From: Takakia lepidozioides
Taxonomy: Eukaryota > Plantae > Bryophyta
NCBI GenBank assembly: GCA_030704615.1
Contig: CM060733.1
Coordinates: forward strand, 39,184,001-39,248,000
DNA: 64,000 nucleotides
Direction of reading: 5' to 3'
The position numbers and the translations under genes are program-made. Shown in pieces: positions 71-36,416 of this stretch (within the stretch, counting starts at the first letter, position 1; each line of letters opens with the position of its first letter). The notes below the pieces were generated by a model. The model did no database searches, was not told where the DNA came from, and was given only the letters and a program-made list of their open reading frames with translations.

Positions 71-211
71 ACGAACGTCCCTCGTTGCAGGTTTCACACT
101 CGGATCTTCAAGCTCTGGTCTGTGATTGTAGCCGTCTTGTTCTTGCTCTGCTCTGCTTTGCTTTGCTTCGTCAACACACATCTGTGCAGAGATCGTTGGG
201 AGAGCGCAGTG

Positions 212-10330: not shown

Positions 10331-10439
10331 CCCATGGCACGCCCACCGCCAACTCTACCCCACGGTATGCAGGCCTTCAGAACATTATGTCTGGCACCCA
10401 TATAATCATATTGCGTGTCTCTCTTCAGGCCACAATAAC

Positions 10440-11949: not shown

Positions 11950-12577
11950 TGAATGTGACTCGATCTGGCTCCAACCCCTGTTGATGTGCATTTGCTCACA
12001 GGTCTCCAAAGCCTCCATCCCCCATATCCATGTTGTGCATGTCCTGCAATCATATCACTTCAGAACACCACATCTCGTTTACCCATCAAACACTTCATTT
12101 GCATCCACAGTGCTTCCACATGTGGCACACGTATCAATAAGGGTATTGTTCAGAATGACATCTGGTACTATTCCAGCCTTGATGATGTCACCATGGACCT
12201 CTTTTCCCTTCATGAATATATAAATGGTTCAGCCCTAGAATACAACTTCCTGGCAATGGTGCCCCTAAAGAATCGGCAATAGAAGACCCAAGCCTGGAGC
12301 GACCTCCTGCAGCAAAAGCATAAGAAATGAAGAGGGTATGAGCGAGATTGATGGAGAGTTGGAAAGCGCTTGGGCGTGGACTAATGAGAAGCAGACAATG
12401 TGAAAGAAAGATGGGGTAGAAAAGAGGGTGGAGAGGACGATATTGAGGGTCGTATGAGAAAGCTAGGAAGCTGTCGAGCTTCAACCCTCCTCGCATCGAT
12501 TGCGCGCATGTCTCCAAAGCTGTTGAGTTCAACCATCCCCGCATTGCTTGAGCGCAAGTGGTCTCTAAAGCTTCCAT
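11950..12577 (-). pseudogene. PLS-class PPR gene fragments
   Basis: 12201-11950 decodes, with stops and frameshifts, as EVHGDIIKAGIVPDVILNNTLIDTCATCGSTVDANEVFDG/KRDVVF*SDMIAGHAQHGYG/EALETCEQMH/QQGLEPDRVTF, a typical L-S-P motif series. EALETCAQ-like pieces also occur at ~12460-12577. Confidence 0.8.
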
Positions 12578-13369: not shown

Positions 13370-13957
13370 AGGTGGTTATGTTGGCTATCATATTTCAAGC
13401 TAGTTTCGTATGACCAAACATTATTCCAGTTGAGGAAAGTGCTTCAGAGAATGAATACTGTGATTCAGATTCAGAATAAAGTTGATTGTTTGGAACCATC
13501 TATTCAATAACATCATCCTACAATGATTTGGACACTTGTATGTTTTCTAAAGTGTGCCACAGGTGCACAAACCACTTAAACATTTTCATGTATCACCACA
13601 AGAGTGGTACCACTCACTAAGGTATTTTTAACCACTCACAATCTACCACCGCCCAAGTGATACCAATCATTGCGGTGTCTTTAACCACTCACTATGTACC
13701 ACTGTCCAAGTGGTACTAATCATTGAAGTATCTTTAGCCACATAACATTCTAGAACTAACATGAGATATTGAAGACCTGGCTATGTTGGCTAGCTGCATT
13801 CAAACGGCATTTGTACAACCAACCGCTATTCCAGTTAAGGAAGTGATTTAGAGGGTGACGAATATGTTTCAGATTCAGAATAAAGTTTATTGTTGGAACC
13901 ATTTATTCAATAGTATCATCCTACAATGGTCTGGACACTTTTCATGTATCACCACAA
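13370..13957. repeat. Imperfect direct duplication (~180 bp, period ~405)
   Basis: tattccagtt...cagattcagaataaagtt...catcctacaatg...ggacactt occurs at ~13423-13537 and at ~13828-13940. Confidence 0.7.
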
Positions 13958-14478
13958 CAATTTAAAAAATCGTAAGGCTCCACATCCAATGGCATGTTGT
14001 ATCGGTAGTACTCGTATCCCGTGGGCATATTGTCTTGCAACCCAAACACCTCGTAGAGACGACGATGGATTGGTCCACGACAGTCAGGGCATTGGCTAGC
14101 TCGCATGGCTGCCGATATGAGACATGTGGGGTGAAACAAATGGCCACATGAACCAAGCATATAGTCTCCCTCCGGTCCGTAAGGGTTTAGGCACATTGTG
14201 CACACCGTATCATCTATTACCCATGACGGTGGATTGCTCCGTGGCTGGCTTGTGCATGGATTGCAACTCAATCCATCCGCATCCCTATAGACCAAACCCA
14301 GTCGATACACAACCTGAACATGTCTCTCATGCTCCTCCACCGTAGCACGAGAGGCAAAGCAATTCCTGTAAGCCCTCAGGAACTGCCGTATATGTCGTCT
14401 TTCTCCTCCAGTGACAATGGGTCCAATGTCAGGCTCTCAATTGTCCTCCGTAACTGCAACCTTAAGTCCAGTAGACTT
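13942..14478 (-). pseudogene. Downstream remnant of the DNMT retroelement: pre-RT, RT and RNaseH patches fused in frame to a RING-H2 domain
   Basis: ERRHIRQFLRAYRNCFA, SRATVEEHERHV, QVVYRLGLVYRDADGLSCNP, then CTMC-x14-CGHLFHPTC-x10-CPDC (C3H2C3). Confidence 0.7.
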
Positions 14479-15111
14479 TGTCACGGACATAGCCCAGAGG
14501 AACTTACCAGGAGTAAATACCAGAAGTTATCAAGTTATCATGTTACCAAAAGTTACCACGACTTACCGTGATTTACCATGATCTACCATGATTTACCATT
14601 ACTTACCAAATTACCGGGAGTTTACCAAATTATCAAGAGTAACTTGGGAAACTACTCAGGAAGCTTCTTTTGGAGGAAACTTCTCCATCAAGATACCTCA
14701 TTTGTTTAAAGAAGCTTCTCCATCAAGAAACCTTTGTTTAATTTTGGAAACTTCTCCAGCAAGAAACCTCCATAGGGGAAGCTTCTTGGGGAAGCTTTTT
14801 AGTAGCCAGTATATATAGGAGGCGAGACTGGACACTCTTCAGTCTCGCCAACACAAGTTCAAACTACTCTTGTTCCAAGTCCAGTACTCCAATCCAGTCC
14901 AGTTTCTAGTATCTGGTATTCCAGTCCAGTTTCCAGCATTCCAGTATTCGAGTCGAGTTCCAGTATTGTACTCTTGTCCATTGTTATAAAGATCATCTTG
15001 ATTCATGTTCACCTACCATGCATTCGGCCACGCCGACCTTGACTTCTTGTCTAGTCTTGTACCTCTAGTCTGATCTCTTGTTTGTGTTCTGTCATGTTCT
15101 CGTCCTTGACA
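14479..15111 (+). repeat. 5' LTR (633 bp)
   Basis: Begins TGTCACGG and ends CCTTGACA. TATA box at ~14810-14817. The 3' half matches 20040-20305. Confidence 0.93.
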
Positions 15112-15149
15112 GTTTGGCGAGACTAAAGTTTGTTCTTTAGTTAGTTAAG

Positions 15150-16230
15150 ATGGAAGGCACATTTGCGAAAATGGTCACCACATTGCAGAGTCTTCAGCTC
15201 CAGATGCAAGAACTTCGTACATCTACCAACCAATTGCAAGCTGATCAGTCTCAAGATCTTGGCAACGCTCTCCACAATTTGCAACAACAAATTTCAGAGT
15301 TAAAAGAGTCGAACAATGGATCTTCATCCATACGAGTCCCTACTCCAACAGCTCATACTGCAACGGTTCATCTTTAACAGATTACGAAAGAACCAAAGAT
15401 TAGCATGCCCGAGAAATTTGATGGGACGAGATCAAGATTTCGCGGTTTTGTTCAACATGTACGACTGTTCCTACGACTACATCCACAACGCTATCCCGAT
15501 GAAGGTATTCAAGTGGGATTCGTGGGCACCCTTCTGTCAGGCACTGCCCTATCTTGGTTTACACCGCTATTAGAAAAAAAAATCACATTTACTATACAAT
15601 TTTGAAGCATTCATGTCCGAGTTCACTGCAACGTTTGGAAAAAATGATAGAGAAAGAGTTGCAGAAACAAAGATGTGAAATCTTCGACAAGGAGTACGTC
15701 CTGCTTCTATTTATGCTGCCAAATTTCGACAACTTGCGTGCGACCTCGACTGGAATGAGAAGAGTCTCATTAGTCAGTTTCAATGTGGACTAAAAGATGA
15801 TGTAAAAGATTTGTTGATGACAATGCCAAACGTGAGCACACTAAGTGAATTCATCATCCAAGTCATTGCATGCGATAATCGTTTGTTTGAAAGACGTAAA
15901 GAGAAGCGATCTGGATGGTCTACGACGCATCATGCCACTGATGGTCTACGACACCAAACGCAACGATCCATCAGACATCCAGTAGTGATCCTATGCAGAT
16001 TGATGCTGTCTGATTCAAGCCATTGATGTCACAAGAAAAACAAAGACGGCGCTCGAATGGATTATGTCTCTATTGCGGAGAAGAAGATCACATAGCATTA
16101 AACTGCCCCAACAAGAGAAGATTCAAAGCTCGGGGCACAACTTAAGTGTTCGATACGAGGAAATTCCTTACCGAAAAAAGATCTCTTTCTACCTCCAGAC
16201 CATGCTCCTTGCTTCACAGTTCCGGTAAAA
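15150..16230 (+). pseudogene. gag: Chromovirus gag (frameshifted)
   Basis: Coiled-coil N-terminus, retrotrans_gag-like PEKFDG...ALSWF...FRQLACDLDWNE, and a CCHC knuckle at ~16066-16107. Confidence 0.85.
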
Positions 16231-16236
16231 ATCAGA

Positions 16237-19200
16237 GTGCAAAATCGAGATATCACTGTAAAAACACTTTTGGACTCAGGAGCTTCTGCTTGTTTTATGG
16301 ACAAAAACTTTGCGAAGCAAAACAATTTAACGCTCGTAAAGAAAAAACTCTCGGCCCCCGTTGAAGTCATCGATGGACGACCATTAGCATCAGGAAATGT
16401 GGACCATGAAACTCGACCACCTGAAGTGAAGCTTAAAGATCAAGCATCACATATTGTTTTCAATGTCATCCAGTCTCTAACGAATTATGTGATCCTTGGA
16501 CTTCCCTGGTTCGTACTTCACAATCCCGACATCGACTGGCGATCGCGAAAAATTTCTACAAGACAAAAATGTAGAAATATCAAAGGTATTCAACCCCTAT
16601 TTCTTGGAGCTAGAGCTTTTATGAGAGCTACCAAAAAAGAGGCGACATTTGCATTTTATGCGACTCCGATCAAGACCACAACAGACAAAGGTACTTCAAC
16701 ATTACCCGCTCAATATCAAGATTTCAAAGATGTCTTCGAGAAGAAAAATGCAGATATATTGCCAGAACATCGACCCTATGACTATGCAATTGAGTTACAA
16801 GGAGTCCAACCACCATTCGGCCCAATTTATAACTTATCCCAGACGGAGTTGGCTGCATTACGTGAATACATTGATGAAAATTTGTCAAAGCACTTCATCC
16901 GACATTCAAAATCACCCGCGGGGGCGCCTATCTTGTTTGTGAAAAAGCAGGACGGATCATTACGCATGTGTGTCGACTATCGCGGTCTCAACAAAGTCAC
17001 AATCAAGAATCGTTATCCGTTGCCGCTGATTTCTGGGTTTCTCGACCAGCTGGGACGAGCGAAGATTTTCACCAAAATCGACTTGAGATGAGCTTATAAC
17101 CTTGTACAGATAAAAGAAGGAAACGAATGGAAAACAACTTTTCGAACAAGGTATGGACATTTTGAATACAGTGTTATGCCTTTCGATTTTACAAATGCTC
17201 CAGCAATTTTCCAACATATGATGAATGACATCTTTCGAGAATTTTGAGATGACTTTATAGTCATCTATTTGGACGACATTTTGATATTTTCTCAGAATGA
17301 AGAAGAACATGGCCACCATGTACGCCTTGTCCTTGATAAATTAAGAGAAAAATGACTATATGTCAAGTTGGAGAAATGTCTTTTCCATCAATCTGAGGTC
17401 GAATTTTTGGGCTACATTATTTTCGACAAATGCGTCTTTATGGATCAGAAGAAAATACAAACCATCATCGAGTGGATTAAACCAACTTCGGTCCGAGATG
17501 TACAATGTTTTCTGGGCTTTGCAAATTCCTATAGAATCTTCATCAATGACTACTCCAAAATTGTTGCACCATTGACACGACTCACAGGGAAGGACAAATT
17601 TGTATGGGACGAGAAGGCTGACCAGACATTTGAAAGGCTGAAGCAGGCATTTACAACGGCTCCCATACTGGTACATGCAGACCCATCTAAACCATTCTTC
17701 ATAGAAGCAGATGCATCAGACTTGCGGTACTCTCTCAATATGGTACAAATGGCCGACTCCACCCTGTTGGTTTTCGTTCTCGCAAAATTTTCGCTGCGGA
17801 GATCAATTATGGAATCCATGACAAAGAACTTCTATCGATTATCGATGCTTTTGAGGAGTGGCGACATCTATTGGAGGGAGCTAAACATCGGGTTACTGTC
17901 TACACCGATTACAAAAACCTCGAATATTTTATAAGTGCTCATGTTTTGAATCGACGTCAAGCGAGATGGAGTATGTCATTAGCAAGGTTTGATTTTGTTA
18001 TTACCTACCGTCCCGGACATCTTCAAGAAAAATCAGATGCTCTCTCTCGACGATCGTATCTTGTGCCAAGAGAAGGGATAACCAACAAAAATCCATCATC
18101 CTGAAACCAACAAATCTCCAATTGAATATGTTATCCATGTCCACCTATGATGATGCAGAGATCGTAAATGAGATTCAATAAGCACTGAAGAACGACCATT
18201 TTGCTACGACACTACGAAGTCAACTAAATCAACCTCGAGACAACCCACATATTACAAACGACTTCAAATTCAAAGATGACTTACTTTATTTCAAGGGACT
18301 TCTCTATGTACCTCCAGGACCTACACGAATTCGAATTCTTCAAACATGTCATGATCTTCCGGCTGCAGGACATTTCGGCTTCAACAAAACATTGGAGTTG
18401 GTATCCAGGGACTATTGGTGGCCGCAGATGTGGAAACTCGTGAAAGAATTTATAAAATCTTGCGACACGTGTGCTAGAGCAAAGGGACCACGACATCGAC
18501 CTTACGGCCTTCTTCAACCATTACCCATTCCCAAGGGTCTACGGTCGTCCGTGTCTATAGACTTTATTACGGACCTTCCAATTTCCAAGACCACCGATTC
18601 AATCCTTGTTATTGTAGATCATTTTACGAAGATGACACATTTCATTCCATGTAATAAGACGGTTACCGGCGAGGAAACTGCAAGACTCTTCCTCAATAAT
18701 ATCTATCGCATTCATGGACTCCCGAAGGACATCGTATCGAACCACAGTTCATATCAAATTTCTGGAGGAGATTATTTCACATATTGGATACTAAGATCAA
18801 TCTCTCTACAACTAATCATCCACAGACTGATGGTCAAACTGAACGTGTAAACCAGATTTTGGAGTAGTATCTTCGTTGTACGATAAATTATCACCAAGAT
18901 AATTGGACGGACCAGGACAGGACGACGATAGTGATGTTTGTATGTCCCGTCGAAAAAGCCACACACGATCTCCGACCTTGAACTGGGGTTGGAGTTGGCG
19001 ACGTTGATCTGCATACTCTTTGTATTGTTTTTGAGCTTCTGCGAGGTGGGATGTAAGCTCCTTGTGAATTGTAGCAAGATGAGTAGCAAGGTTTTCTATA
19101 GCAGGGCTTCCAACAGTTTTCATGTGGAAAGGGTTTGCTTGAGAATGATGACCATAATTGGAGAAAAATGGAGTTTGCTTGGTCGAAGAATATATAATGT

Positions 19201-19610
19201 TGTTGTAGGCAAACTCAGCCACGCGACCATCAAAGAAGTTGGATTATCAACGTCTGGGACCATTCAAAATTATACGACAAATAAATCCGGTCAGTTTTCA
19301 GCTTGAACTCCCACGAAGTATGCGCATCCATCCAGTATTTCATGTTTCACTATTGGAGTTGTATCATCCATCGAATATTCCAGGGAGAGTTTCCGTACCA
19401 CCTCCACCAATCGAAATCAATTAGGAAATTGAGTATGAAGTCGACGAAGTCCTAGACTCTCGCATCAAGTATAAACGTCTTGAGTATTTCGTACATTGGA
19501 AAGGCTACAACATCAACGAACGAATGTGAGAACGTTCATCTAACCTCGTCAATGCCTCTGACAAAGTCCAAGAGTTTCATCAACAATATCCAGCTAAGCC
19601 CCGAGAATGA
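16237..19610 (+). pseudogene. pol: Chromovirus pol (PR-RT-RH-IN-chromodomain) with stops and an internal inversion
   Basis: ORFs 16237-17091, 17368-17934, 17871-18104, 18392-18850 and 19239-19424 carry Ty3 pol motifs. The segment ~18930-19222 reads on the minus strand. Confidence 0.92.
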
Positions 19611-20039
19611 GACGTCACAACGATGATGTCAGCCAAGCTAGCTTCAAGGAGAAGACTCAACATTCAATGTACCTGATACACGCTAAGGAGGGAGGAACAC
19701 CACACATCAGTATATATAACTACACTTCTAACACTCTTGCATCTTGTATTGGCAGCATGGAATCACAAGAACCAGATACATTGGAGTTGTCGCTTACCCA
19801 ACTACCAGATCAGCCATTCTGACTCTCACGACCTTCAACATCACGTCGACACTCTCGAGACAATGGGCCACCAATGCGACACATACTTCCTCGTCTGGAC
19901 CCCGTACGACAGCAAGTGGAGCCTACTCGAAGTCTGATAATTCTGTTGGAGGTGAGGCTTCGGACCCAGAGGGCAACGAAATCATGTTTGAAGGCAGCTT
20001 CGAAAATTAGAATGCTCAAATTACTACGTGATCCCAAGT

Positions 20040-20305
20040 TAGGAGGCGAGACTGGACACTCTTCAGTCTCGCCAACACAAGTTCAAGCTACTCTTGTTCC
20101 AAGTCCAGTACTCCAGTCCAGTTTCCAGCATTCCAGTATCCGAGTCGAGTTCCAGTATTTTGTACTCTTGTCCATTGTTATAAATATCATCTTGATTCAT
20201 GTTCACCTACCATGCATTCGGCCACGCCGACCTTGACTTCTTGTCTAGTCTTGTACCTCTAGTCTAATATCTTGTTTGTGTTCTGTCATGTTCTCGTCCT
20301 TGACA
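20040..20305 (+). repeat. 3' LTR lacking its U3 part
   Basis: Near-identical to 14817-15111 apart from a short internal deletion. No match to 14479-14815. Confidence 0.9.
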
Positions 20306-20599
20306 GATTTAGAGGTAGATGACGCGTCCAGTGGTTGCTATGCTGCAACCTCTTGAGCAGTACTTCATGCCTGCTCAGTCAATGACAAGGCCTCATCCTG
20401 CCCCATCATCTCATCCTTGAGGACCTTCTCAACCCAAGAAGAATCCCCAACCTCATCCATCACCGCCGCCTTGGCTGCCAACTCCCTCTGAACCTCGAGC
20501 ACCTCCCACGTGTGCCATGGTTGTCTGCACCCTGTGGTCCTCACCGGCTCGTCCCCACTCACTATATTTACCGTCTCGGTAGGCAGAGAGACCATTGAG

Positions 20600-21570
20600 G
20601 GAAGTGCGCATTGCTCAGCCATAGCCAAGCTGATAATGCAGGTCAGGCAATTGAGATCCATCGCTTGCCCCAACACCTGACGACGTGATGCCTCAGAAAG
20701 AGAAGGCACCGCCGTGGTCCCAGTGAAAAAACCCATAGCCCGTTTGCACTCTTTGACATTAGGCTCCACTAACTGCTGCAACTGAGCATCCTACAGGAGG
20801 CCAGGTCCACTATCCCGAAAAGCATGCGATCCTGGGAAGCCGAGTAGTGTAGATAATGCTGCTCGTGGTTGACCCACCTTGTTGACCACTGCCAAAGGCG
20901 AACGGTCATCGTGTCTCACACGCTGAGACTTCCTCCATGTGTCCAAGATGCTATCCACTGTGAGGTGTGCTGGCCGCTGCACCTCATCAAATGCACGCTT
21001 GAGCAGTGCAGGTGACATCAAGTTAGTCCACCATAGCCATGGACGATGAGCCCGTGACCCCACTGCAGCTGCATCCAGCAACACTGCTGACCCAAGCTAC
21101 GACCGGACTTGATGCACACTGACCATCACCCTGGCCCGAGAATCGTCCACCAGTGGCACATTCTCCAAGATGTATGCTAGAGATACAGCTTGATGAAGCT
21201 GTAAGTGGGGCAAAATCTGCACCATCTCCCAAAACAGACCCGACTTCGAGTCTCGCAATCCATTGCCATGCCTGACTGATGAATACCCTTGGCAGGGCCA
21301 ACCTGCCACTACCAAATCAATGGAGCCAATCCGCTCCAAATCATTTGCCCCCAGCAACGAAATGTCTGCTGGCAAGACCTGTTGATATCCACGAACTGCA
21401 GACACCGACAACAACTCAGGGTATTGCTGTACCAATTAAGTAACATGGCGTAGGGAGACACGTCGTGCAGTCTCATCCCTCTCCACATACAGGTAACGCC
21501 GTACTTGTACACCTACCTGAAGCACAACAGTCAATCCGGTGTTGATCCCGCCAAACAAGCCCGGAAAGCA
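20600..21570 (-). pseudogene. C5 cytosine DNA methyltransferase domain (DNMT3-like) within the retroelement polyprotein
   Basis: Motif I GLFGGI; II YVERD; III ADI; IV IDLVVAGWPCQG; V SGLFWE; VI YILENV; VIII AHRPWLWWTNL; IX VKECKRAMGF; X RRQVLGQAMD. Linear motif order, interrupted only by in-frame stops. Confidence 0.9.
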
Positions 21571-22919
21571 AATGTCTTCATCTGGATACTACCACACGAT
21601 AGGTGTGGTGTCCAATGGTGACAACTGAGGTGGTCCTGGTCCAATCCCCACACTGTCCTCCTCTCCTGACGGTACAAAAGCCTCTACCCAGGTTTGTTGC
21701 ACCTGTCGATCATCAACCCGCTGCAAATCCTTGCTCGTGCCCCACAATGGAGTCTGAGCAACCATGGAAGGCAACTCCGCCATACCATGCATGTCATCCT
21801 GCTCTCCCGGAGGTGACACATCCTCTGAATGAGTGTTGTCATCCAACAACTCTCCAAGCCAAGTCACTGCAGCTGTGAATGCTGCCAGTGTCGGCATATT
21901 GCCTCGCTGGGCAACCGCAATTCCTCCTATGAACGTCACGAGGAGCTGCACATGCCGGTCGTCCCCTAACTGCCATCCAGGCCTATAGAAAGCTGACTCC
22001 TCCAAAAAATCCAGGGTGAAGCCCATGGGGTACAGTACTGCCCCACCAACCAGGACATCGTACGAGACCGCGTCTGTCACAATGGCCTTGGCTCTTATCA
22101 GTGAGCTATCTGTAGGATGATCCGGCTGTAGTTTGATAGCCAACTCACGTCGTGTCATGCCTCGAGCCTGCTCTGATCCTCCCAGAGATGTCTGTATCTG
22201 AAAAGGGCACGGCTCCATATTCGCCTCCATGAGGCCCAAGCCTGCAATAACAGCTTTGCCCAACATCAATGGCTGAGCTCCCGAGTCCAACAAGACCCGC
22301 AGTGGCCGGTACCTCTTACCTGCCGGTCCACTCAAACAGAAAATGTCATCCTGGTTGTCTAACATGACAACTCCAGGTGTCACCATGGCGCGCTCAATGG
22401 CTGGCCTAGCTGACAGCTCCATCAACTTAGCAGCTGCAGCTTGTCATGGCGCCGCCGTGGCAGTCTTGACCCTCAAATCCGAGGATCCCTCCGGCACTAC
22501 ACCTCCCACTATCTCTGCAGAAGATGAAGTAATCTCCCCACTCTCACAGAGTGTAGCTGCCAGCCTGAACATCTCAGCTGGTTTTACCCCCGACGTCGCA
22601 ATCATGGTAGCCGAGAACAATGGAGCCTGACACATAGATGTGGTTGCCCCCAGCAGCACACTAGCTGTAGCCTTGGCAGCACTAAGTAGTGTGTGCTGCC
22701 CGTGTAGTTCTTCCCAATAGCATAATAACCTCCGTCTCGGTAACAGTCGGGCGAGAACTAGGTGCCATGGATGACGTCGACACTGTCTCCGCCAATATGA
22801 ATGACTGAGGAAGCTTTGCCTGACGGCTTGCCTCCCCTCGTTGTGAATCCAACTCCACATCTGCACCTTGTGGCTAAGGAACTCGTGCTGCTCCTCGAGT
22901 CAAGGCAGCAGCAGACTTC

Positions 22920-23092
22920 ACCTGCACTAGTGGTAGTGTTGTCCCATAGTGGTAGTAGTAGTGCTGCCCTGCACTAGTGGTAGTGGTGCCCCACCCATAG
23001 TGGTGGTAGGTAGTGGCACCGCTCATTAGTGGTAGTGGTGGCCCGCACACAATGGTAGTGGCACCCCTCACTAGTGGTAGTGCTGACCCGCA
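22920..23092. repeat. Short degenerate minisatellite (ctagtggtagtg-based) in the Gag-protease linker
   Basis: ctagtggtagtg or tagtggtag repeated about 8 times. Confidence 0.6.
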
Positions 23093-25481
23093 CATGAATC
23101 CCATACCTCCCATGTCTCCTCCCTCAAGAGTAGGAGGTGGACCATCCGGCCTTGGAGCCGGTACTACCTGAGCTATGGCCATGGCAGCGAGCCTCTGCTC
23201 TAGCTGCTGAAGCCGGTTGGCCATGCCTTGGTCACCACCCTGACCTCCACGTCCCTGGTCATGTTGAGCTTGCCCTTGGCCTGCCCCTCGTGCCTAGCTA
23301 CCTCGTCCTCTCTGGGCTGCTCCACCTCGCCCCCGGCCACCATTGTTCCCTTGGAACTGGCTTGGGCGCAACTCAGGATGCAAACCATAACACTGGGCCT
23401 CTCAATGCCCGTACTTGCCACAATGCCCACACTGCAACTGTGCAGGCTGTGCCGGTGCTAAACCATTGCCTCCCTCTGGGCAATCCTTCTTGACATGGGG
23501 TCCTCCACATGTCCAACACACCACATCTGTCCGTTGTTGGCCTGCAAATTACGGAAGAGATCCATGCATCTGCTATGTTACGCAAAAACTGAGACACCCA
23601 ATCCTGCAAATAACCCATTTTGAAAGATGGTGAACAGAGATACAGAGCCCGGTGAAGTCACTCCCTATCACTTGTATAGGGCACGTGAGATAAATGAGTA
23701 TTTTGTAGGGGGGTATGTTACTTAAGGTATTTTTTACTACCCTATAATTACATAATTTTGTAATATGGTGAATTTTTGGCATGCTATTCTAATTATAATT
23801 TTTGTTTCAAATAAATATTAGACACCGTATATTAAAATAATACAATAAAAGATTTTTACAAGACAAATGAATTTATTATTTGGTTAAAATAAATTCATTT
23901 TATTCGCATCATCAGCATTCAAAGTATAAACGTTTTGCGCTCTATCGAAATCACAGTGACTGAACTAATAATTGAGTCTACATCTCACTTGTTGTCGGTA
24001 TTATCATATTTGAATTTAAATTGTCCTCTAGATTTTGAGAAGTAGTTTAATAACACCATGGTGTGGTTGGTCTATTTAGGAGATCAATAGGCTGTCGCGA
24101 TATCCCCCACCTGCTCCCTGCCTTCCTTCTCATTTTTTGAATCCTATATAGCCACCATTTTACCAGTAAGCTACATACAAATACCTATATCCTTCCGCTA
24201 AGAACATATATATATTTTTGCAAGGAGCCGGATCTCACCTTAGGTAATTTGAGGTCACCTTACAAGAGCCATATTACAGGCTGATAAATGAGACAATGCT
24301 CCTCAATATTGATAGCCCCCAAAATCGCCATTCAGATCGTCTCAAGTATCTTGCTGCAATACCCTTACCCGTGCTGATACCCCGCCTTGCCCCCATATAC
24401 CGGTCCAACACTGGTTCCAAACCCTCGATGTTCATGAGTGCATGAGATATGTTACTAAGATCAATCTGCTCCTTGGTCATAGATACTAGTTTTGGATTTG
24501 TGTGACTTTCATGACTTGTATTTGTGTGACTTAGTATTTGGTACACATCATCTGGTGTTGGAGGATTCAGCTGAAGAGTAGACTTAATTTCGAGCTAGTC
24601 TTCTGCATCGTATTGTAACATGATCGGGGTTTTTCCCAAAGGGAGTTTTATCCTTCACTCAAATTGCAGAGTAAGGTTTTCTCCCTTGGGTTTTTTCATC
24701 CCTCTCATGCGGGATGCATAGTGATATTAGGCATAGTGTAGGACTGGTGTAAGCTTCGGCTTTTATAATTTGATTAGCTCGCTGGAGCTCGCTCTTCCAG
24801 CAGGGCAGGCTTTACATATGTGGGGCCCTCGAGTCCAAAAAAATCCAGATTCCATTCTGTCAGGGGATGTAAAATGAAGGGTAGTTGGATCATTTAGTAG
24901 CAATCTACAATTGGTTCATGACTATTGGCACATGTTAACAGTAACATGATCGGCCAAGTTGTCTGCTGATGTGTGATGAGGGATTAAGGTAATCAAGGCA
25001 AATAGGGCCCACCTCCCAAAGGGGGCATAGCCGTGAGGCGAAGTGGCTCTTAGTTATGCCGGCGAGAGGATTGCGGATGTGGCGGGCGTCTATCGACGAT
25101 CGACTAATCAAGGAAACCAATCAATTGTATGCCACCTGTTGTTCTAGATTACCCTTATTTTATTATAAAAAGCTGGGTGTCAGGCCGAAAGCAAGATGAG
25201 CAGTGTGGAGTGGATGTGAATGTCATGATGCTTTTGCATGTCTTATGATTGGTCCAGCAGTTTGTGTCCTCTGGAATAGGATCCCGTCTCTCTAGCTTAG
25301 CAGGTTCTACTCGCTAACTTTTCTTTGTGTGCCCCGGCCCTGAGAGGAAAGGGGAATATCCCATGGGTAGAGAAACATGCTTTACTGTTTTGATCCCTGA
25401 TCTGCCGTTCATCCGCCATCCCACTTTCATCCATCATCCACTTAAAACCATCGTTACCCTAAAACCAACGTTATCACCACA

Positions 25482-25519: not shown

Positions 25520-28205
25520 GAAGGCAGTAGCCCTTGTGGTGAAGAGACACCATAATTTACGCACGAAGAAATAATGCAATCACCAAATGTCTGGAAGTGT
25601 GTCAGTTTCAATTGCAAAGAGGGCAGGAAGGTCCCCATATGATGGCCTCATGTACAACAGTGAAGAGGAATCTGTCCTTACTGCTGCACGAAAGGGAATA
25701 GTTTATGAGGATAAAAACTGGGGTCTCACAAAGGAGAGAAAATGAACAAGTATTTTTTTGCCAAGCCGGCTCAAAGGAGATCGGCTACACTAATTCCAGC
25801 TCTTCGTGACCCTCTCTCAGGGCCGCTCACAGATAGCCCAAGGAACATGGCCTCAGTAGCTGCAGGGTATTTTCAACAGTTGTTCCAAAGGCAGGAGGAC
25901 TCTGCCCTCAAGGATCAGGCCAAAAAGACCCTTCTTCACCACATTCCATGTGCCTTATCTGACATGGATAAAGGGTCCCTGGCAGCTCCTTTCACCATGG
26001 ATGAGTTGGGTAGGGCTGTGGAGTCTATGGCTTCCTTGAAATTGTCTGGGTTGGATGGCTTACCAATTGAGTTCTTCAAAGTAATAATGTGGCAAACTAT
26101 TGGAGATGAGTTTCTATCTATAGTCAATGACATACTGGAAAAGAAACTTATGCCATCTCAACTCTGTGAAGGGCAGAAAACTCTGTATTACAAAAAGGGG
26201 GACAGGGACTGTGTGGCCAATTACCGCCTTATCACATTGCTCAATTCAACATACAAAATTGTGGCAAAAGCACTTGCAATGAGGCTGCAACCCCTGCTGC
26301 CACAGATCATTAGGATGGACCAGACTGGCCTTTTTCTGAAGGATTGTATGATACTTGACAACATCTTGTTGGCTTATGAGGCCCTGCACAAAGCTGAGAT
26401 TAATAACCAACCGCTCGCCTTCTTGATGCTGGATTTCGATAAGGCGTTCGACTCTATAGACTGGCATTTCCTTTTGAAAGCTCTGGACAAATCAGGACTC
26501 TGAGGCCCTTTCACCACCTGGGTTCATATCCTCCTGCACTCGGCCTCAAGCAGGGTAATGGTAAACGGGGTCATCTCAAAATCCTTTCCCATCTCCAGGT
26601 CTGTGCGGCAGGGAAACCCATTAGCACTGTTCCTTTTTCTGATTGCTGCAAACTCATTGGGTCATCTGCTAGATCACAGACTTGATATTCTGGGGCTCCA
26701 TTTGCCAACTCTACAACCAGAGTCAATGTATGCAAATGACACCTCTCTGCTCCTTGACAACTCCACCTGGGGTAATATTGAAAGAGCCCTGCAGGCCCTG
26801 CAGACTTTCTGCCTCGGCTCCGGTCTCAAAGTCAACTGGAGAAAGTCAGTGGACATCTTGTCAATTATGCATAGTGGGGCAGCAGTTGGTCACTACCATC
26901 CATTGGGGGGGGGGGGAAGACATTGGATTGAGGTGGTTGCAGGCTGGGGAGTCACACAAGCTGCTGGGTCATCTAATGGGTCACCACCTATCGCAGCTCC
27001 TTTAGTGAAGGAGGATGGTTATACAAATTTGTGGACAAAGGAAGACTCCCCATCCATCTGGCTCCCTCCGGAGGAGGCTTCTAGATTTTCACACAGGGTT
27101 CCTGTGCTACTTCATTCTCCAGATGCTGAGCATTCATGCAATCAGCGTGCCTACTGGATGATAACTCGCCCATGTCCACCATGAGCAAAGGTATACGACA
27201 GAGCTGGAGCCCTTATTTTGAAGGCACAGTTCTGTGTGCCAGGATAAACTGTTGAGCTTAAAATTGATTGAAGCTCGATCAATATCTAGTGGTGACGTGC
27301 TCGGCACCTACCTTCCCGACTTGCGCTTTACCTGGCAGATCACCATCCCCCCTCAATGGGAAATCCCCTGGTGAAGGTGAAGAAGCAGACTTCAATTGGC
27401 GCCAAAAAAAAACAAGAGATCACAAGTCTAGAGCTCAGCTAAAATTTTGATACCTCAAGCTCCTCGGGCAGATCTCCCTCAATCCCTGGATTGTGGCAGA
27501 TCTCTCTGAATTTCGGGGTATCAGCAACTCTCCTCCAGCATCGTCCTCCCTCAGCTCCAGGACTCTTGGCTAGGGTCGGCACTCCTTTTTTAGATCCCAA
27601 TGCTACAGTTCTGATTTCAGAGCTTTATATTGTACTCATAAGACGTTGTTTGCCGTAGCCTTGTGCCATTGACCCCGCGCCCAGTTTCAGAGCTTTATAG
27701 TACACTAGCAGCGGGATTCTTGTTCCTCCTCCCCTTACTCTCTGCACTCTGCCCCTCTATTATCCTTTGGCTTAAGCTCATAATTCTACATTCTCATGAA
27801 CGCGCCTAGGATCCCATCTTACTATCCTCATAGATCTTTGCTCTCTCTCGTCACTTCCGATCCTTTGCTTCAGTAGCTTGTGTGCTAGGGTGCGGGGGAA
27901 GTTTCCCCCATTAAGTCTTCATGGCAGTGGTTATTTTTTCCACTGATGTTGACAATCTTTTATTGGCTCTCTTGTAGAGAGAGACTTTGCGGAGAGATGC
28001 AAGTCAATGGAGAAACTGTGGTCAGAGTACCATACACCATGTCAAGGCGCTGATTGCTGTGTTGGGCTGAGTCATGCTCCCTACTCTTGCCTTCATCTTA
28101 TGTTGTTCCAAAGTAAAGCAAGAGAGCCAATTGCCGTTTGAGGCTTGTTAATTTGATTAAAAGGGGCGAGTCCGTCCCCTTTCTCTAAGAAAAAATAAAA
28201 TAAAA
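25520..28205 (+). mobile_element. 5'-truncated, decayed LINE (L1/Tx1-like RT)
   Basis: SGLDGLPIEFFK, NYRLITLLNSTYKIVAK, LDFDKAFDSIDW, SVRQGNPLA, MYANDT (degenerate YADD), SGLKVNWRKS. A-rich tail at 28189-28205. Confidence 0.9.
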
Positions 28206-28373: not shown

Positions 28374-31300
28374 ATGGCTACCAGTACGCTTCCGTTTCAT
28401 TTCTGTTCCTATCAATCTGAATCTATCATGCTGAAAATGCTGTTGTTCGTGCTACTCGTTGGCGAAGCTGACATCTGAGCACATGCATTGTTGTGTAGGG
28501 TCACAGTTTGAAAATAGCAGTGAAATTGGTGTATTTTCAAAGCTCACCAATGCTTACTGCCTGGTGGCCATTGGGGGATCAGAAAACTTCTACAGGTAAT
28601 TTTCCTGGACCTTTGCCTTATTTCGGTCCATAACATGCTCTTCTCACTGTTCTTAGCATCCTCTACCTGCTCTTGCTTTTAACTTGATGGTATTGAAAAA
28701 TTTAAACATTGCAGGTCCTTCATATGTATCCAGGAAGGTGGGGATTTTAGGATCGATTTTCTAGCATGTGATTTGGGCCCGCGGAAGCCATTTTGTGCAT
28801 TAGTATGCCATATGGACAGATACAAAGTTGGGAAGGAAGCTGATGGGAGAGAGTAGGAAGTCTGTATCGTGATACAGTGGGATCGATAATTGTTGTGATG
28901 ACAGCACATTTGAAGCAGAGCTCGCAGATGTCGTGCCTGTTGTGAAGGCGTCAATTGCTGGCACACGTGTTATAGGCCGGATGTGTGTGGGTAAGCCCAA
29001 TTGTTCCTCAAAGTTGTTTATATTTAGGACATATGTTCTTAAGATTACTGGCTACAGCATGCATGTATACTTGAGAGTAAATGAATGAGGTCAGGGGATC
29101 TTTAGACCGCAAAAGTGATGAGCTCAAGGCTTGTGTAGGGTAAGTCATTTCCTTGGATTTAAGTTTAAGATACTTTAGACCATGTATCTTTTCAGTCACT
29201 TGGGCTGCACTTGGGCAAATGCCTTGAAGTGTCCTGATTTGCAGGGAAATTTTCTGTGCCCCAGCTCAAGATCAGGTATACTTTGATGTATCCCTCAAAG
29301 TTTGGAATCATTTGACAAATCTGCATGACCTGGAAGACCTCCGCACGCAATCTCCAGCCTATTTTGGGCTATACGAGAAGACCCCTCAAAAGAAATAGAG
29401 CTAGGCTGATAGAAGTTTTTGGTGTGGAGCAGGCAACAAGAATGGTTTGCTGCTACCCAACTCTACTACTGATCAAGGTGTGCTCTTTGTTACACATCCT
29501 TATTTTGGCCTGCTCGGGTTTGAAGCTGTTAGACCTGTTGTAAAGACTAGTGTGCCTTTCCCGCCGGATGATTTTGCATTGCGTCCCAGCCCATGCCAAT
29601 GGAATATACATCTCTGTAGGATAATGAGTTATTTGGTCCACCTTGTTAAATAGTATCTGGTTGCGGGTGTGTAACAGAGCTGCTCCACATGAGGAACTGC
29701 TTGCCGGATAGTGTGGTAGTCCAAAGAGTGGACGAGCGGTTGTCTGCCCTGGGCAACTGCATCACCTGTAATGACTATGTGTCGCTCATTCATACAGATC
29801 TGGACAGGGTGGGTGTCTTGCTGCCTTGCTTTGGTAACTTTCTGAGGGCTTACTATACCATGGTCTGTCCACAATGGTCTGTTCATAACTCTCCTACACA
29901 ACTAAACTACTTAGGAGTGTAGCAAACTGTCCAGGGCACCAGGGTGTAGCTTGTGTTATGTGCTTCATTTGTGTTTCCCCTGCTTTTGGCATTTGCAGCC
30001 GGGATGTAGTGTGCTTGTTCAATTTCTAGGATTTGCAAAGGCAGAGCCCTTTTCAACGTGGTTATGGATACCTGTTCAATATGAAGTAGGGTGGGATGTC
30101 CCAGTATGCAGTTTTAGTGACACAAGGCATGCTCTGAGCTTGTTTGATCCCATGATGGACATGCATAAATAAGTGTTACTCCTGTATCCAGATAGACCAG
30201 GGAGGCTACTGCCAATTCGATGTGACTGAACAGCAACATCTAGGACAGCTGAATGAATGAGTTGCCCTGTTAGCATGTAAGGATGGTAGTGTTAGTCAAT
30301 TGCCACATTTTTTTTTGCATAGCCATACAACCTATGTACAAGACAGGCTAGTGACAAGATTGTAAGACCCACATCATGAAGAGGTTTGTCTCACAGGACT
30401 GGTGTGGGTGGATGCCACAGGAAACAGAGGAGTTGATAGCAGATGTGCTCGGTGTGGAGGTCTTCAGGCAAACAATTGCTGGCAACATCCTTGTAGGCAG
30501 CTACTGTATTTTCTCCAATCGTGGTGGTTTGGTGAGTCTATCATTTTCGTTCAGTGGTGTTGTAGGGTTACACCGCTTGGATATAGTTCTCGTTGTGGGG
30601 CCAAGACGGAGAGAAGAGTGTGCAGGCCTATGGCAGCATCACTGCAAAACAGAAGGGGAGAGGTGGGGGGGGAGTGTGCTTTGCATGGACAAATAACTGT
30701 GACATACTTTTGAGCATTCATTGAGTTCAAACCTGTGAAGATTGTCAAATTTCTTGCAAACCAGAATGGATTCCACAAAACTTGTGAAGACAACTTATGG
30801 CCTGACACCTCAATTGGACATACCAACATTGAAGATTTGGTAGTTAACTAGTTAGCTAGTTAAAAATAGTTTTCTCCTAATAATTTTCTGGTGTCGAATG
30901 GAGCTCATCTTTTTGTAGATGATGATGCAAGGGTGTAGGCAACGTCACTTTGAACTCTGAAACCGAAGATTGTCTTTCAGAGAAAATGTGAACTCCGCAA
31001 GTCTGTTGTATGTTGGATGCCCAAATTACAAAGGAAATTAGATAAGACCCCTTTTGACGTGAAAGAGTCAACTCTTTCCTGTTAGTATCAGATCCGAAGT
31101 CCAAGCCGTATAACCAATCTCATGTGGGTGAGCTAGCTTTTTTGTGAGGGAAGAGTTAAAGAATTACTGGTGAGTCTATCATTTTAAAGAATTACTATAA
31201 ACATGCTGAAAATCATCTACATGTGGAGACTGACTCAGTTCTTGCACGCATGTAATGGTTAATGAAGACTCCATTGAGGCTTTTGCTGTTGTAAAGAGGG

Positions 31301-31798
31301 CAGGTTGATGCCCATGAGGGTGGAAAGCGAGAATTTCTAAACATCAGAAAGGAGTGAAAACTCCAACCCTCCAGCAAGTGAGGTGCTTCATTTATAGAGG
31401 GTAGTTGGGGAAAAGGGAGAGAGAGAGCAACAATTTCACTCAAGTGCGCTTTGTATTGCTGCATGATAGGCTCGCTACAAATCAACATTCGCATGGAGTT
31501 GGTGGTTGACAGGTCATATGTGTGTGGTGGGTGTGAACAGGTGCATCCTCACACATCGATAGAGGACTTGGATGAGTTGTCCTCATTGTTGCAAGTGCCA
31601 TTGGTGGCAGGCACAGTCAACCGAGGAAGTGAGGTAGTAGGTGCCGGACTTGTTGTCAATGACTGGACTGCATTTTGCGGGTTGGACACCACAGCGACCG
31701 AGCTGTCAGTGATAGAGAGTGTATTTAAGCTGCGGGAAGCTCAGCCTAGTGCCATTGTCAATGACATGCGGGCTTCTCTCATTGACAGCATGTCATGA
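28374..31798 (+). CDS. EIF6: Eukaryotic translation initiation factor 6 (exons 28374-28383, 28499-28595, 28905-28990, 29433-29477, 29678-29808, 30421-30531, 31541-31798; 245 aa)
   Basis: [26 protein letters not shown]...GNKNGLLLP...[12 protein letters not shown]...[30 protein letters not shown]...SLIDSMS*. Exons sum to 738 nt and all introns are GT-AG. Confidence 0.96.
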
Positions 31799-33186
31799 CT
31801 ACCCGGCCTTTCCCATCTTATTTTGATGACAGTTGGGGTGTGCATATCCCATGATCTGCTCATTTGAGCCTGGTGCCAAACTTAGCTGGAGATACATGGC
31901 AGCTTTTAGGAGCGTGTAGGACATAAAGGGTACATCCCTGTCTCTCCTATGCTTGCCTGCCTTGTTGATGTGATGTTTTTCCCGCTTATATGTATAGCCC
32001 ATTATGTCCTACACGCTACCATCGAAAAGGGTTTATTTTCCTGCAAAATCTGCTATCTAACGGGGGATTTTGTTTAATTCAGTGGGGAGGGTCGAATGCT
32101 TGATGCCAAGAATATTCAAGCGATCAAGAAACTGACCCTTGATGCAATTACACAAGAAACCGGAGGCAGCCATCCGTAGGAATGCTGATTGAGGGGAGGT
32201 GCAGTAGCCCTGGAATTACAGAATCTTTAGTGTTGATTCTACTCATGTTATTCTGGTACCAGCATTGTGAGTCGGGCATGGATGCTGCTCTAGGGTTAAG
32301 GGTTGTCATGATATTGGTAAGGTTTGGTTGTGTATGAGGAAAGAGAATTACACTCCCCCCATGACTCTGATTCCTTGAGAGGGAGTGTCGGTGGAAATTA
32401 GCTGCTCTTAGTCTTTTTTTTGAGAATGTCATAACAACAGTAGGACCTCTGTCGTGTGTGGGCAGCACTGACATGAGACATGAGACATGGACATGAGAAA
32501 TGACATGATCAGGTAGTAGCTTATGAGAGATCTTAAAACTCGTCAGCATGCTGTCTTCATTACAATGGGAAGGTCACAACCTGGACTCTGGTAATGAAGG
32601 GGTAGAAAGGGGCCAGCCAGGGCAGCATCTGTAGATGGCAAACTGGAAGGTAATGTCACATTCCATAGACATATCATATCATACCACTACACAGGAGTTG
32701 ACCTCTGGGGCTAAGAAAGAATGATGTGTATCTTGTTGTCCAATGATGAAATCTGCATAGTGAAGCTACTGGATATTTGACTCAAAACTCCTGCACTGGC
32801 ATATAAAGGGGAGCACTGATAGCTGAACCATAAACAGGGAATCTTCAGGAGGAGGGAGAACATAAGGGAGGGGGAGAGTTGAGAAGTAAAAGGGATTTGA
32901 AGGGAGGCATATGGGTGAGATGAATGGAAAAACCATGAGATGCTTGAAAGCACCAACGTCTGAATCCTATGGCAGATCCATGATCTCGTACCAATCGCTG
33001 TGGTTCAATTGATGGGTCTGGGCAAGGCTTGAGGCCATGCTTTAGAGCAGAGCTAGGGCAAGTTTGCTTCAGGGCAGGACTTAGCTAAGTTGCAGTAAAG
33101 ACTTTACTGGTCTCTGATGATGAAATCAATTACATCCAAGTTTTCTCAAAATATTTGGACCTAATCGGGGCTCATTGTGGTTGTGT

Positions 33187-35276
33187 TCAATGGAGTCTTC
33201 ATTAACCATTACATGCGTGCAAGGACTGAGTCAGTCTCCACATGTAGATGATTTTCAGCATGTTTGTAATTCTTCAAAATGATAGACTCACCAGTAATTC
33301 TTTAACTCTTCCCTCACAAAAAGCTAGCTCACCAACTTACACCCGAATCTCCAGTGTAGATATGTCCAATTGAGGTGTCATGCCATAAGTTGTCTTCACA
33401 AGTTTGTGGAGTCCAATCTGGTTTGCAAGAAATTTGACAATCTTCACAGGTTTTGAACTCAATGAATGCTCAAAAGTATGTAACAGTTATTTGTCCATGC
33501 AAAGCACACTCCCCCCCCCCCCCTCCCTCCCCTTCTGTTTTGCAGTGATGCAAGGCCTCGGCGGTCTTTGCTACTGCCATAGGCCTGCACACTCTTCTCT
33601 CCGTCTTGGCCCCATAACGAGAAGTATATCCAAGTGGTGTAACCCTACAACACCACTGAATGAAAATGATAGAGACTCACCAAACCACCACGATTGGAGA
33701 AAACACAGTAGCTGCCTACAAGGATGTTGCCATGCCTGAAGACCTCCACACCAAGCACATCTGCTATCAGCTCCTCTGTTTCCTGTGGCATCCACCCACA
33801 CCAGTCCTGTGAGACAAACCTCTTCATGATGTGGGTCTTACAATCTTGTCACTAGCCTGTCTTGTACATAGGTTGTATGGCTATGCAAAAAAAATTGTGG
33901 CAATTGACTAACACTACCATCCTTACATCCTAACAGGGCAACTCATTCATTCAGCTGTCCTAGCTGTTGCTGTTCAGTCACATCGAATTGGCAGTAGCCT
34001 CCCTGGTCTATCTAGATACGGGAGCAACACTTATGCATGGATCATGGGATCAAACAAGCTCAGAGCATGCCTTGTGATCACTAAAACTGCATGCTGGGAC
34101 ATCCCACCCTACTTCATATTGAACAGGTATCCATAACCACGTTGAAAAGGGCTCTGCCTTTGCAAATCCTAGAAATTGAACAAGCACACTAGATCCCGGC
34201 TGCAAATGCCAAAAGCAGGGGAAACACAAATGAAGCACATAACACGAGCTACACCCTGGTGCCCTAGACAGTTTAATACACTCCTAAGTAGTTTAGTTGT
34301 GTAGGAGAGTTATGAACAGACCATTGTGGACAGACCATGGTATAGTAAGCCCTCAGAAAGTTACCAAAGCAAGGCAGCAAGACACCCACCCTGTCCAGAT
34401 CCGTATGAATGGGCGACACATAGTCATTACAGGTGATGCAGTTGCCCAGGGCAGACAACCGCTCGTCCACTCTTTGAACTACCACACTATCCGGCAAGCA
34501 GTTCCTCATGTGGAGCAGCTCTGTTACGCACCAAATACTATTTTACAAGGTGGACCATATAACTCATTATCCTACAGATACGTATATTCCATTGTCATGG
34601 GCTGGGACCCGATGCAAAATCATCCGGTGGGAAAGCAAACTAGTCTTTACAACAGATATAACAGCTTCAAAACTGAGCAGGCCAAAATAAGGATGTGTAA
34701 CAAAGAGCACACCTTGATCAGTAGTAGAGTTGGGTAGCAGCAAACCATTCTTGTTGCCTGCTCCACACCAAAAACTTCTATAAACCTAGCTCTATTTCTT
34801 TTGAGGGGTCTTCTCGTATAGCCCAAAATGGACTGGAGATTGAGTGCCGAGGTCTTCCAGGTCATGCAGATTTGTCAAATCATTCTAAACTTTGAAGGAT
34901 ACATCAAAGTATACCTGATCTTGAGCTGGGGCACAGAAAATTCCCTGCAAATCAGGACACTGCAAGGCATTTCCCTAGGTGCAGCCCAAGTGACTGAAAA
35001 GATACATGGTCTAAATTATCTTAAACTTAAATCCAAGGAAATGACTTACCCTACGCAAGCCTTGAGCTCGTGACTTTTGAGGTCTAACGATCCCCTGACT
35101 ACTCTCAAGTATACATGCTGTAGCCAGTAATCTTAAGAACATATGTCCTAAATATAAACAACTTTGAGGGACAATTGTGCTTACCCACACATCTCTGGCT
35201 TATAACACGTGTGCCAGCAATTGACGCCTTCACAACAGGCACGACATCTGCGAGCTCTGCTTCAAATGTGCTGTGC
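33187..35276 (-). pseudogene. EIF6: Inverted partial genomic copy of eIF6 (exons 3-6 plus introns and parts of intron 6)
   Basis: Reverse complement of ~28901-30835 and ~31127-31277. Has a 9-nt deletion in exon 6 (VFRHGNIL versus [11 protein letters not shown]). Lacks exons 1, 2 and 7. Confidence 0.93.
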
Positions 35277-36416
35277 TCAGGCATGTGGCTGGTGTGGAAA
35301 GTGCATCTCTATAAAGGCAGTTTCAGAAAGCAATACCCAGGGGCTAGGGCATAACGTTCTCACCAAGGTACTGAAAATAGGTTTACGAGGAAATACAGAA
35401 ACCACAAATTGTGGACAGGAGTTCAATTTTACGTTACTAAAATGTTATATTGCTACATTTACAGTCACAGTAAGATCAAATCAACAGACTTAGCATATGA
35501 CTTTTGCCACAGTATTGGAAGGTACTCACGGTATCTGACCTGGGCAGTGATGCTGGCTTGTGCATATTGCAGTAGAATGTTGTAGAGAGCTACATATGTT
35601 TATCCCCTTGTTTTCTCATCTATTGCCTGTCGGATGCTTGTTGTCCCAGTTACTTTTGGAGACTATTGCTCTTGCTTCAACCACCTTTGCCACAGCGTTG
35701 GGGTGCTCGTACTTGCTGGAGAAGCCATTTCTACTATCCGTGGAAGTGTTCATCAAGGAGACATTTAATCTCATCAATGTGCTCTGTTTCTCGAGTACGG
35801 AGGTAGGTTGTAGTTCCCTAAGGAACTCCATATTCTGCAGTAGAATGGGTCAAGTATTGTGAGTTAGTGCTTCAATCACTCATGATGTGAATTGATGGCC
35901 AATGCAGCTCTAGCCTTTTGAACTATTAAGAGGCATCCTCGTTGGACTGGAGGGAATATTGTTCAGTCTATAAGGACCAGATCCAGCTTGGCTGGAAGAG
36001 TTAGTTGTAATCTTGGGTGTCCTAACTGATGGGAAAGACAGGGATTTCAACTGGCGTCACTAATGGGCTACTAAGGAGTCACAGCTGAAAGCGCAGCTTA
36101 GATTTTGATTCTCCTTGGACTTGCACAAGTCTGCTTTGTTTTGACCACTGTGTGGTCACACAGTTGTGGTTTGCATTCAAGGACCTTGCACTAGCCATCT
36201 TGTGTGGCTGCTGCTAGTGATTTGCCCTCATGCTTTTCTCTTACTGTATCAAATATAGGTAGATAAGGTGTGCACATATGTCCTCTGGTCAGGCCTTCAA
36301 CTATATGGTGAAGAATGCATGTTTTTTGGCTTTGACATATACATGTGATCCAATAACAACAGATAGTCAGCTAGGGAAGTTTTGATTTGGATGATCCCTT
36401 CCTTGTCTGATTGCAG

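Follow-up and report, generated by a model that had tools for sequence, protein, structure and literature searches.

Remains of a Ty3/Gypsy retrotransposon in Takakia lepidozioides whose family carries a DNMT3-like methyltransferase ahead of a conserved stop codon

The DNA analyzed here, hereafter the window, is a stretch of 64,000 nucleotides from the bryophyte Takakia lepidozioides (GCA_030704615.1, contig CM060733.1, positions 39,184,001 to 39,248,000 of the forward strand). Its minus strand holds the remains of a Ty3/Gypsy retrotransposon in which a retropepsin-type protease (PR) is followed by a DNMT3-like C5 cytosine DNA methyltransferase (DNMT). A first-pass annotation, made from the letters alone, had named two Gag CCHC knuckles, a retropepsin and a linear set of C5-methyltransferase motifs on this strand, and every one of these motifs was located in the minus strand of the window. 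The element was compared with L002, a whole but decayed element; with L006, an intact one; and with P0426, an open Gag-PR-DNMT protein of 1329 aa. What is new is a stop codon conserved between the DNMT and the reverse transcriptase (RT) in all three DNA elements examined, i.e., the window copy, L002 and L006. The parts of the locus are as follows; RH denotes RNase H, IN integrase and LTR long terminal repeat.

23177..23560, minus strand: what remains of the 3' part of gag, comprising two CCHC knuckles and a Gly/Arg-rich tract, aligning with P0426
23480-23518, minus strand: CCHC knuckle 1, CWTCGGPHVKKDC, in the gag remnant
About 23390-23431, minus strand: CCHC knuckle 2 (CGHCGKYGH, 23405-23431), interrupted by a stop
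22411..23176, minus strand: Gag-protease linker with frame switches, from the P0426 alignment
21900..22410, minus strand: retropepsin-type aspartic protease, from alignment with relatives (PF13975 below cut-off)
22276-22293, minus strand: LLDSGA, retropepsin motif
20614..21600, minus strand: DNMT3-like C5 cytosine methyltransferase domain, motifs I-X in linear order (PF00145)
21544-21558, minus strand: LFGGI, C5-methyltransferase motif
21286-21303, minus strand: GWPCQG, C5-methyltransferase motif
21154-21168, minus strand: LENVP, C5-methyltransferase motif
21037-21051, minus strand: AHRPW, C5-methyltransferase motif
20728-20751, minus strand: ECKRAMGF, C5-methyltransferase motif
20656-20685, minus strand: RRQVLGQAMD, C5-methyltransferase motif
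20332..20340, minus strand: conserved in-frame stop, TAG CAA CCA, closing the Gag-PR-DNMT product, at the same position in L002 and L006
14479-20305, plus strand: separate nested Ty3/Gypsy element, decayed (LTR pair; Pfam PR, RT, RH and IN-zinc domains)
14221..14478, minus strand: DNMT element continued in the same frame, with RT leader, RT piece and RNase H end (tblastn with L002 and L006 RT-RH proteins)
13942..14205, minus strand: RING-H2 finger (finger at 14077-14205), in frame directly after the RNase H remnant (PF13639)

Five open reading frames (ORFs) share one minus-strand frame, as had been stated, and the single polyprotein frame deduced from them holds for the PR-DNMT ORFs; the knuckles and the first part of the ORF at 22444-22866 lie off that frame, with switches near 23177-22930 and 22757-22662. 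In the alignment with P0426, residues 485-542 match 22930-22757 in the frame of the knuckles, and from residue 566 on the match continues at 22662 in the PR-DNMT frame. The gag remnant has 40% identity with P0426 over 130 aa (pairwise E value 3e-20), and its placement is also given by the tblastn map. The profile searches proposed in the first-pass annotation bore out the methyltransferase, with PF00145 matching the window domain at 39.7 bits (E value 5e-10; cut-off 22) when stops are read as X. The window protease remained below the cut-off of PF13975 (E value 0.007), and no Pfam zf-CCHC model matched the window knuckles, although both regions do align with the intact P0426. The protease shares 59% identity with the corresponding region of L002, and the L006 protein matches PF13650 (E value 8e-4).

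The placing of the methyltransferase between protease and RT is borne out by the order PR-DNMT-RT in L002 and L006; the segment 20306..23560 itself contains no RT, and remnants of it occur only beyond the nested insertion. The first-pass annotation had missed that the window copy is a nested, deleted relic. The insertion at 14479-20305 is flanked by a 5-bp target-site duplication (GACTT at 14474-14478, GATTT at 20306-20310), and public contigs joining 14472 to 20309 represent its empty site. One candidate for the missing pol of the DNMT element, the RT-RH-IN region at 16102-18850, was rejected, being on the plus strand with LTRs and a target-site duplication of its own. On the far side of the insertion, the RT leader of the DNMT element extends to 14353, followed by an RT piece from past the catalytic motif (14308-14348) and the RNase H end (about 14221-14310). 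Most of RT and RH has been deleted and no integrase is left. The window copy keeps PR and then RT/RH remnants, in the same order as in Ty3/Gypsy elements. Public contigs with loose ends at 14352, 14348 and 14313 lead into the RT sequence of other copies, so the loss of RT is a deletion in the window copy. At the other end the copy is 5' truncated, lacking the upstream gag and the 5' repeat; read depth drops about 100-fold past 23740, and one loose end of the public contigs lies at 23572. The RING-H2 finger that follows the RNase H remnant, in frame despite two internal deletions within RT/RH, scores above the cut-off of PF13639 (E value 2e-8). In run X1 this piece is multi-copy (depth 19010 at 14058), far below the depth of the DNMT, and it possibly marks a non-autonomous Gag-PR-DNMT-RING subfamily or else a separate repeat. 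The window copy is dead: six decay stops interrupt the PR-DNMT frame, four of them inside the DNMT domain, more occur in gag along with the frame switches, and the second Arg of motif VIII, which is Arg in 75 of the 81 aligned sequences, is Trp. It is incapable of making a working enzyme.

Apart from these decay stops, one in-frame stop lies about 100-116 codons past motif X at the same place in all three DNA elements. In L006 it is the only stop in the first 6.6 kb of its frame. The contexts are TAG-CAA-CCA in the window, TAG-CAA-TCA in L006 and TAA-CAA-CCC in L002; CAA thus follows the stop in 3/3, and the exact CAR-YYA sequence is present in two (window and L006), with L002 matching at 5/6 bases. 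In-frame CAR-YYA occurs at 8/2207, 5/1541 and 5/852 positions of the three coding regions (about 0.3-0.6%), and CARYY follows none of the 16 other stops of the window and L002. The RT follows directly after the stop and in the same frame in each of the three elements, with neither a stop-filled spacer nor a conserved Met past the stop. The view that the DNMT is an ordinary Pol domain in one open frame with the RT thus did not survive, the conserved stop lying between them. Among 26 predicted proteins at least 70% identical to the L002 domain, 10 end at the stop site, 15 end earlier or elsewhere, and one is a gene model that skips it; of 79 proteins at an identity of at least 44%, one (P0128) continues into RT, this census being drawn mostly from a search limited to 180-576 aa and hence biased against run-on proteins. 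Neither a search for long proteins nor one unlimited in length returned a close run-on protein. Judged by its context, the conserved stop is likely to allow occasional readthrough: CAR-YYA past a stop is the consensus for readthrough in tobacco mosaic virus (TMV), where it suffices on its own (PMC2194720).

Because the DNMT sits on the Gag side of the conserved stop, it is likely to be made at the level of Gag and packaged. Its domain is of the DNMT3 type: all 29 matches of the window domain in a sequence search of the PDB were to DNMT3A, DNMT3B or DNMT3C. The structure predicted for the L002 domain (pLDDT 93, pTM 0.92) has DNMT3A as its best Foldseek match in the PDB (E value 2e-20, TM 0.70/0.82), with DNMT3A, DNMT3B and DNMT3C making up all matches listed, and the predicted fold is that of a complete DNMT3-type catalytic domain. 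The catalytic Cys is kept in 75 and the Glu in 76 of 81 sequences, the two Arg of motif VIII are each kept in 75-76 of 81, and the catalytic residues are intact in L006 and P0426. Between the window and L002 the nonsynonymous divergence of the domain (dN) is 0.25 against a synonymous divergence (dS) of about 2.8, which is saturated, and identity at the three codon positions is 0.70/0.82/0.46. The domain is under purifying selection in the family, which, given the conserved residues and a dN well below dS, has kept a catalytic DNMT3-type domain under selection.

The first-pass annotation had asked whether other copies join protease and methyltransferase, and they do so in P0426 and L006, with RT-RH-IN downstream in L006 and L002. 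P0426 ends at the site homologous to the conserved stop. L006 is a single 6.6-kb frame with one stop, coding for Gag-PR-DNMT and then RT-RH-IN-PHD, and L002 has the layout Gag-PR-DNMT-RT-RH-IN-PHD between direct repeats. The order PR-RT-RH-IN, with an rve integrase and an H2C2 zinc domain, places both among Ty3/Gypsy elements. L006 lies on a 9.3-kb contig, a collapsed circle, of a GTDB cyanobacterial assembly (G001, contig 201) and is the only match in that assembly. A cyanobacterial origin was rejected by inference, this being a complete retrotransposon of eukaryotic type on a 9-kb contig and the sole match in its assembly; it is most likely a eukaryotic contaminant. Direct repeats were seen at L002 alone (307 nt, 94% alike, beginning with TG and cut off by the end of the contig); of the window copy the 5' end is lost, and a 3' end was not found. 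L002 and L006 share a G-run followed, after 112-120 nt, by the palindrome GACAGCTGTC, which marks the start of the L002 repeat. The motif CACGACAGCTGTCA was noticed at L002 14624-14637 and L006 7048-7061, about 115 nt past the G-run and within non-coding DNA that is barely alignable; this shared site looks like the end-to-start junction of split terminal repeats. The B part is missing from the 5' end of L002, and the layout would fit a B-A junction of DIRS-like split repeats (A-coding-B-A-B). The junction palindrome was not found in the window (2 matches with two mismatches, 1.4 expected). Among viral contigs the repeat-junction motif had 19 matches, none of which (0/19) encodes related proteins, and the same contigs gave one distant phage-type DNMT (28%) and no match for P0426; in the search of genome contigs, 5/6 matches were distant bacterial enzymes. 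Flanking the element in L002 are helicase/Rep-like frames (3496-5767, minus strand; Helitron-like by eye), into which the retroelement appears to be inserted.

The family occurs in land plants, as had been supposed. Named relatives, at about 55-65% identity, come from the liverworts and mosses Calypogeia fissa, Marchantia polymorpha, M. paleacea, Riccia sorocarpa and Sphagnum species, and several of them also carry the protease; the PR-DNMT fusion recurs in Sphagnum, in three genera of liverworts, in Closterium and in unnamed contigs. The Closterium protein P0061 and single-ORF Gag-PR-DNMT-RT-RH-IN proteins are more distant relatives. Run X1 agrees with the unique flank at every one of 1466 bases (0 differences), and its summed depth across the DNMT element reaches 4.3e5-9.7e5 as against 50-72 on unique flank contigs; summed contig depth is not copy number, and these values are taken solely to mean that the sequence is highly repeated. 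The DNMT tree was reduced from 249 rows to 125, 85 and finally 59 by removing short, redundant and long-branch rows, and the trees were rooted on phage enzymes only, without rows for host DNMT3, DRM or DNMT1. In the 59-row tree a 100/99 clade of 19 rows unites the window with every named row from mosses and liverworts, the window standing as the sister of the named bryophyte copies; L002 is nested among Sphagnum copies, and L006 joins at a wider 96/92 clade. The RT tree pairs L002 and L006, as sisters, with a group of single-ORF, algal-type PR-DNMT-RT elements (99/92). As no host DNMT3 rows were included, these trees do not separate vertical descent from transfer, nor do they settle the origin of the DNMT. 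A different arrangement, RT-RH-DNMT-IN-PHD, was seen in 37 of the 303 proteins examined (P0008-P0013, P0050, P0052 and others); these Gypsy polyproteins form a clade of their own in both trees and have one named member, from the chlorophyte Scenedesmus sp. PABB004. The excerpted text of PMC5890265 makes no mention of chlorophyte DNMT3-like Gypsy elements.

We propose, with moderate confidence in the model as a whole, that the window copy derives from a repeated Ty3/Gypsy family of seed-free plants with the layout Gag-PR-DNMT, read-through stop, RT-RH-IN-PHD, whose DNMT is packaged and methylates the element's own cDNA. Most ribosomes would end after Gag-PR-DNMT, and readthrough at a level of a few percent would add RT-RH-IN-PHD. 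The element's protease would then release the DNMT and the other domains inside the particle, leaving the methyltransferase at about the level of Gag where the cDNA forms, so that the cDNA could be methylated before integration, which the PHD finger may guide. The likely benefit would be that the cDNA arrives methylated like host chromatin and escapes detection or editing, or that the element's own activity is tempered; the same benefit was proposed for the algal elements (PMC5890265). Ribosomal readthrough, release of the DNMT by the protease, packaging, catalysis, the cDNA as substrate and PHD-guided integration are steps that we infer from established retroelement biology. More tentatively, and with less confidence than in the model itself, we suggest that this Gypsy lineage extends across mosses, liverworts and possibly ferns or lycophytes, that TMV-type readthrough loads an active DNMT3 at capsid stoichiometry which methylates cDNA before PHD-guided integration, and that the family, at high copy, might supply the genomes of seed-free plants with a second source of de novo methylation that is itself mobile.

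Several points, in addition to the bias of the protein census and the limited meaning of summed depth, weigh against the proposed model, and some of them favor its rivals. In P0128, whose identity with the window domain is 44%, no stop interrupts the passage from DNMT to RT. The stop context has been seen in three elements that are homologous and not fully independent, with L002 off the consensus. The gag/pol stop of Candida Tca2 gave no readthrough in yeast (PMC2194720). This result also speaks for a rival that keeps the DNMT family and its conserved stop as described but has RT-RH-IN-PHD expressed by splicing across the stop or from an internal promoter, the CAA context being incidental. Splicing is used by Ogre elements, and in the Riccia gene model P0386 the linker is missing between DNMT and RT, although such models often invent introns. 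Neither route accounts readily for an RT that stands in frame directly past the stop in 3/3 elements, with no stop-filled spacer and no conserved Met, and an incidental context sits poorly with an exact CAR-YYA in two of three elements against the low in-frame background; we therefore consider this explanation improbable.

Slightly less improbable, if still unlikely in our estimate, is that the DNMT is kept for something other than the cDNA, binding or methylating RNA or host chromatin or serving as a structural module of the particle. The Klebsormidium enzyme was inactive in yeast, a result that its authors call inconclusive (PMC5890265), and an enzyme made at the level of Gag would far exceed the need of one cDNA. 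The observed/expected CpG ratios (window 0.49, L002 0.59, L006 0.78, host-gene region 0.36) give no signal of self-methylation, a point that also counts against the proposed cDNA methylation, although CpG depletion is in itself uninformative. Against a purely non-cDNA role stand the conservation of the catalytic Cys, Glu and both motif VIII Arg residues, the complete DNMT3-type catalytic fold that is predicted, and the finding that the related DNMT3s of Symbiodinium DIRS elements methylate CG de novo (PMC5890265). The remaining rival, in which a host DNMT3 of this genome was captured or retrocopied just once by an element that is dead, could draw on the linear host DNMT3 genes of seed-free plants (PMC6453930) and on the broken state of the window copy. 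It is contradicted by the spread of the PR-DNMT fusion over Sphagnum, liverworts, Closterium and unnamed contigs, by the lack of DUF3444, by the high repetition of the sequence and by the existence of intact elements, and we give it almost no credence.

The retrotransposon-borne DNMTs that the first-pass annotation mentioned for Symbiodinium and Klebsormidium are indeed described in PMC5890265. KnitGypsy-Dnmt3 of Klebsormidium nitens (de Mendoza et al. 2018, PMC5890265), in which DNMT and RT share one ORF, resembles the window family in that its Ty3/Gypsy polyprotein includes a DNMT3-type domain that has no introns, is not rearranged and evolves under purifying selection; the window family differs in its land-plant hosts, the stop between DNMT and RT, the C-terminal PHD and its high repetition, K. 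nitens having fewer copies than Symbiodinium (PMC5890265). The two are probably related, KnitGypsy-Dnmt3 having been compared by its published description. The proteins P0004-P0007 and P0481, whose order is Gag-PR-DNMT-RT-RH-IN with no stop, have a DNMT about 34-38% identical and RTs sister to those of L002 and L006, and they probably stand near KnitGypsy-Dnmt3. As the conserved stop parts DNMT from RT in all three elements, the window family is a variant and not a plain member of KnitGypsy-Dnmt3. The first-pass annotation was right that the domain has neither the DRM nor the MET1/CMT layout, being of the DNMT3 type, but it overlooked the linear host DNMT3 of seed-free plants. These host enzymes (PpDNMT3a/b of non-flowering streptophytes; Yaari et al. 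2019, PMC6453930) have the linear DNMT3-type catalytic domain in common with the window; they carry a C-terminal DUF3444, for which a Pfam scan gave no match in the window DNMT, whereas the window domain is fused to Gag and protease and highly repeated. SymbioDIRS-Dnmt3 is likewise borne by a retrotransposon and its enzymes methylate CG de novo in yeast, but DIRS elements use a tyrosine recombinase (PMC5890265). EpiLTRs (bioRxiv 10.64898/2026.05.21.726589) also carry a cytosine methyltransferase on a retrotransposon, but one that is DNMT4-related and accompanied by DAM and a chromodomain. The polyproteins of TMV, murine leukemia virus (MuLV), SIRE1 and Tca2 are similarly split by an in-frame stop, with CAR-YYA in TMV; the known readthrough stops lie between gag and pol or pol and env (PMC2194720), while that of the window family comes after Gag-PR-DNMT and before RT. 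No report of land-plant copies was found in a literature search, subscription papers, the figures of PMC5890265 and preprint supplements being outside its reach. Later literature speaks of 'streptophytes', citing or echoing PMC5890265, and land-plant copies are named in none of the text consulted.

Several other features of the window were noted. The nested element at 14479-20305 we take to be a chromovirus, its C-terminus reading by eye like a chromodomain; the C-terminal part of its integrase shows a small inversion (about 18913-19221), where public contigs have opposite-strand joints. Two tandem genes for phi-type glutathione S-transferases (GSTs) lie at about 100-7640 (plus strand), with best named matches in Adiantum (76%), Ceratopteris (73%) and then Sphagnum (71%); the GST tree places them among seed-free land plants, the branching between lineages not being settled. 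A fern host, to which the best matches might point, was for that reason considered but not adopted. A prenyltransferase alpha-subunit gene occurs twice, 36 kb apart, at about 2800-5900 and 38700-42150 (minus strand), with a weak PF01239 match and the first copy apparently decayed. A tandem array of 8-9 units of about 181 bp occupies 10427-11937, and a fragment at about 12000-12250 (minus strand) resembles a pentatricopeptide (PPR) repeat. A decayed RT of the long interspersed nuclear element (LINE) type (PF00078) at 25715-27184 (plus strand) has low depth in public runs, and at 28896-35279 there are two inverted copies of a 2.4-kb region, which are 84-98% alike and separated by about 1.9 kb of spacer.

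Retrotransposon-borne DNMT3 has been reported from a charophyte alga and from dinoflagellates, and the copies in Marchantia and Sphagnum bring genetics and methylomes to the question of its role, so that self-methylation of cDNA becomes testable. On account of the conserved stop, annotation pipelines would take intact copies for broken ones, and fragments of the family are annotated as host DNA methyltransferases (e.g., the UniRef name of the Sphagnum protein P0315), inflating DNMT counts. For the family itself, the conserved stop implies far more methyltransferase than RT and integrase, which is hard to square with a passenger domain.

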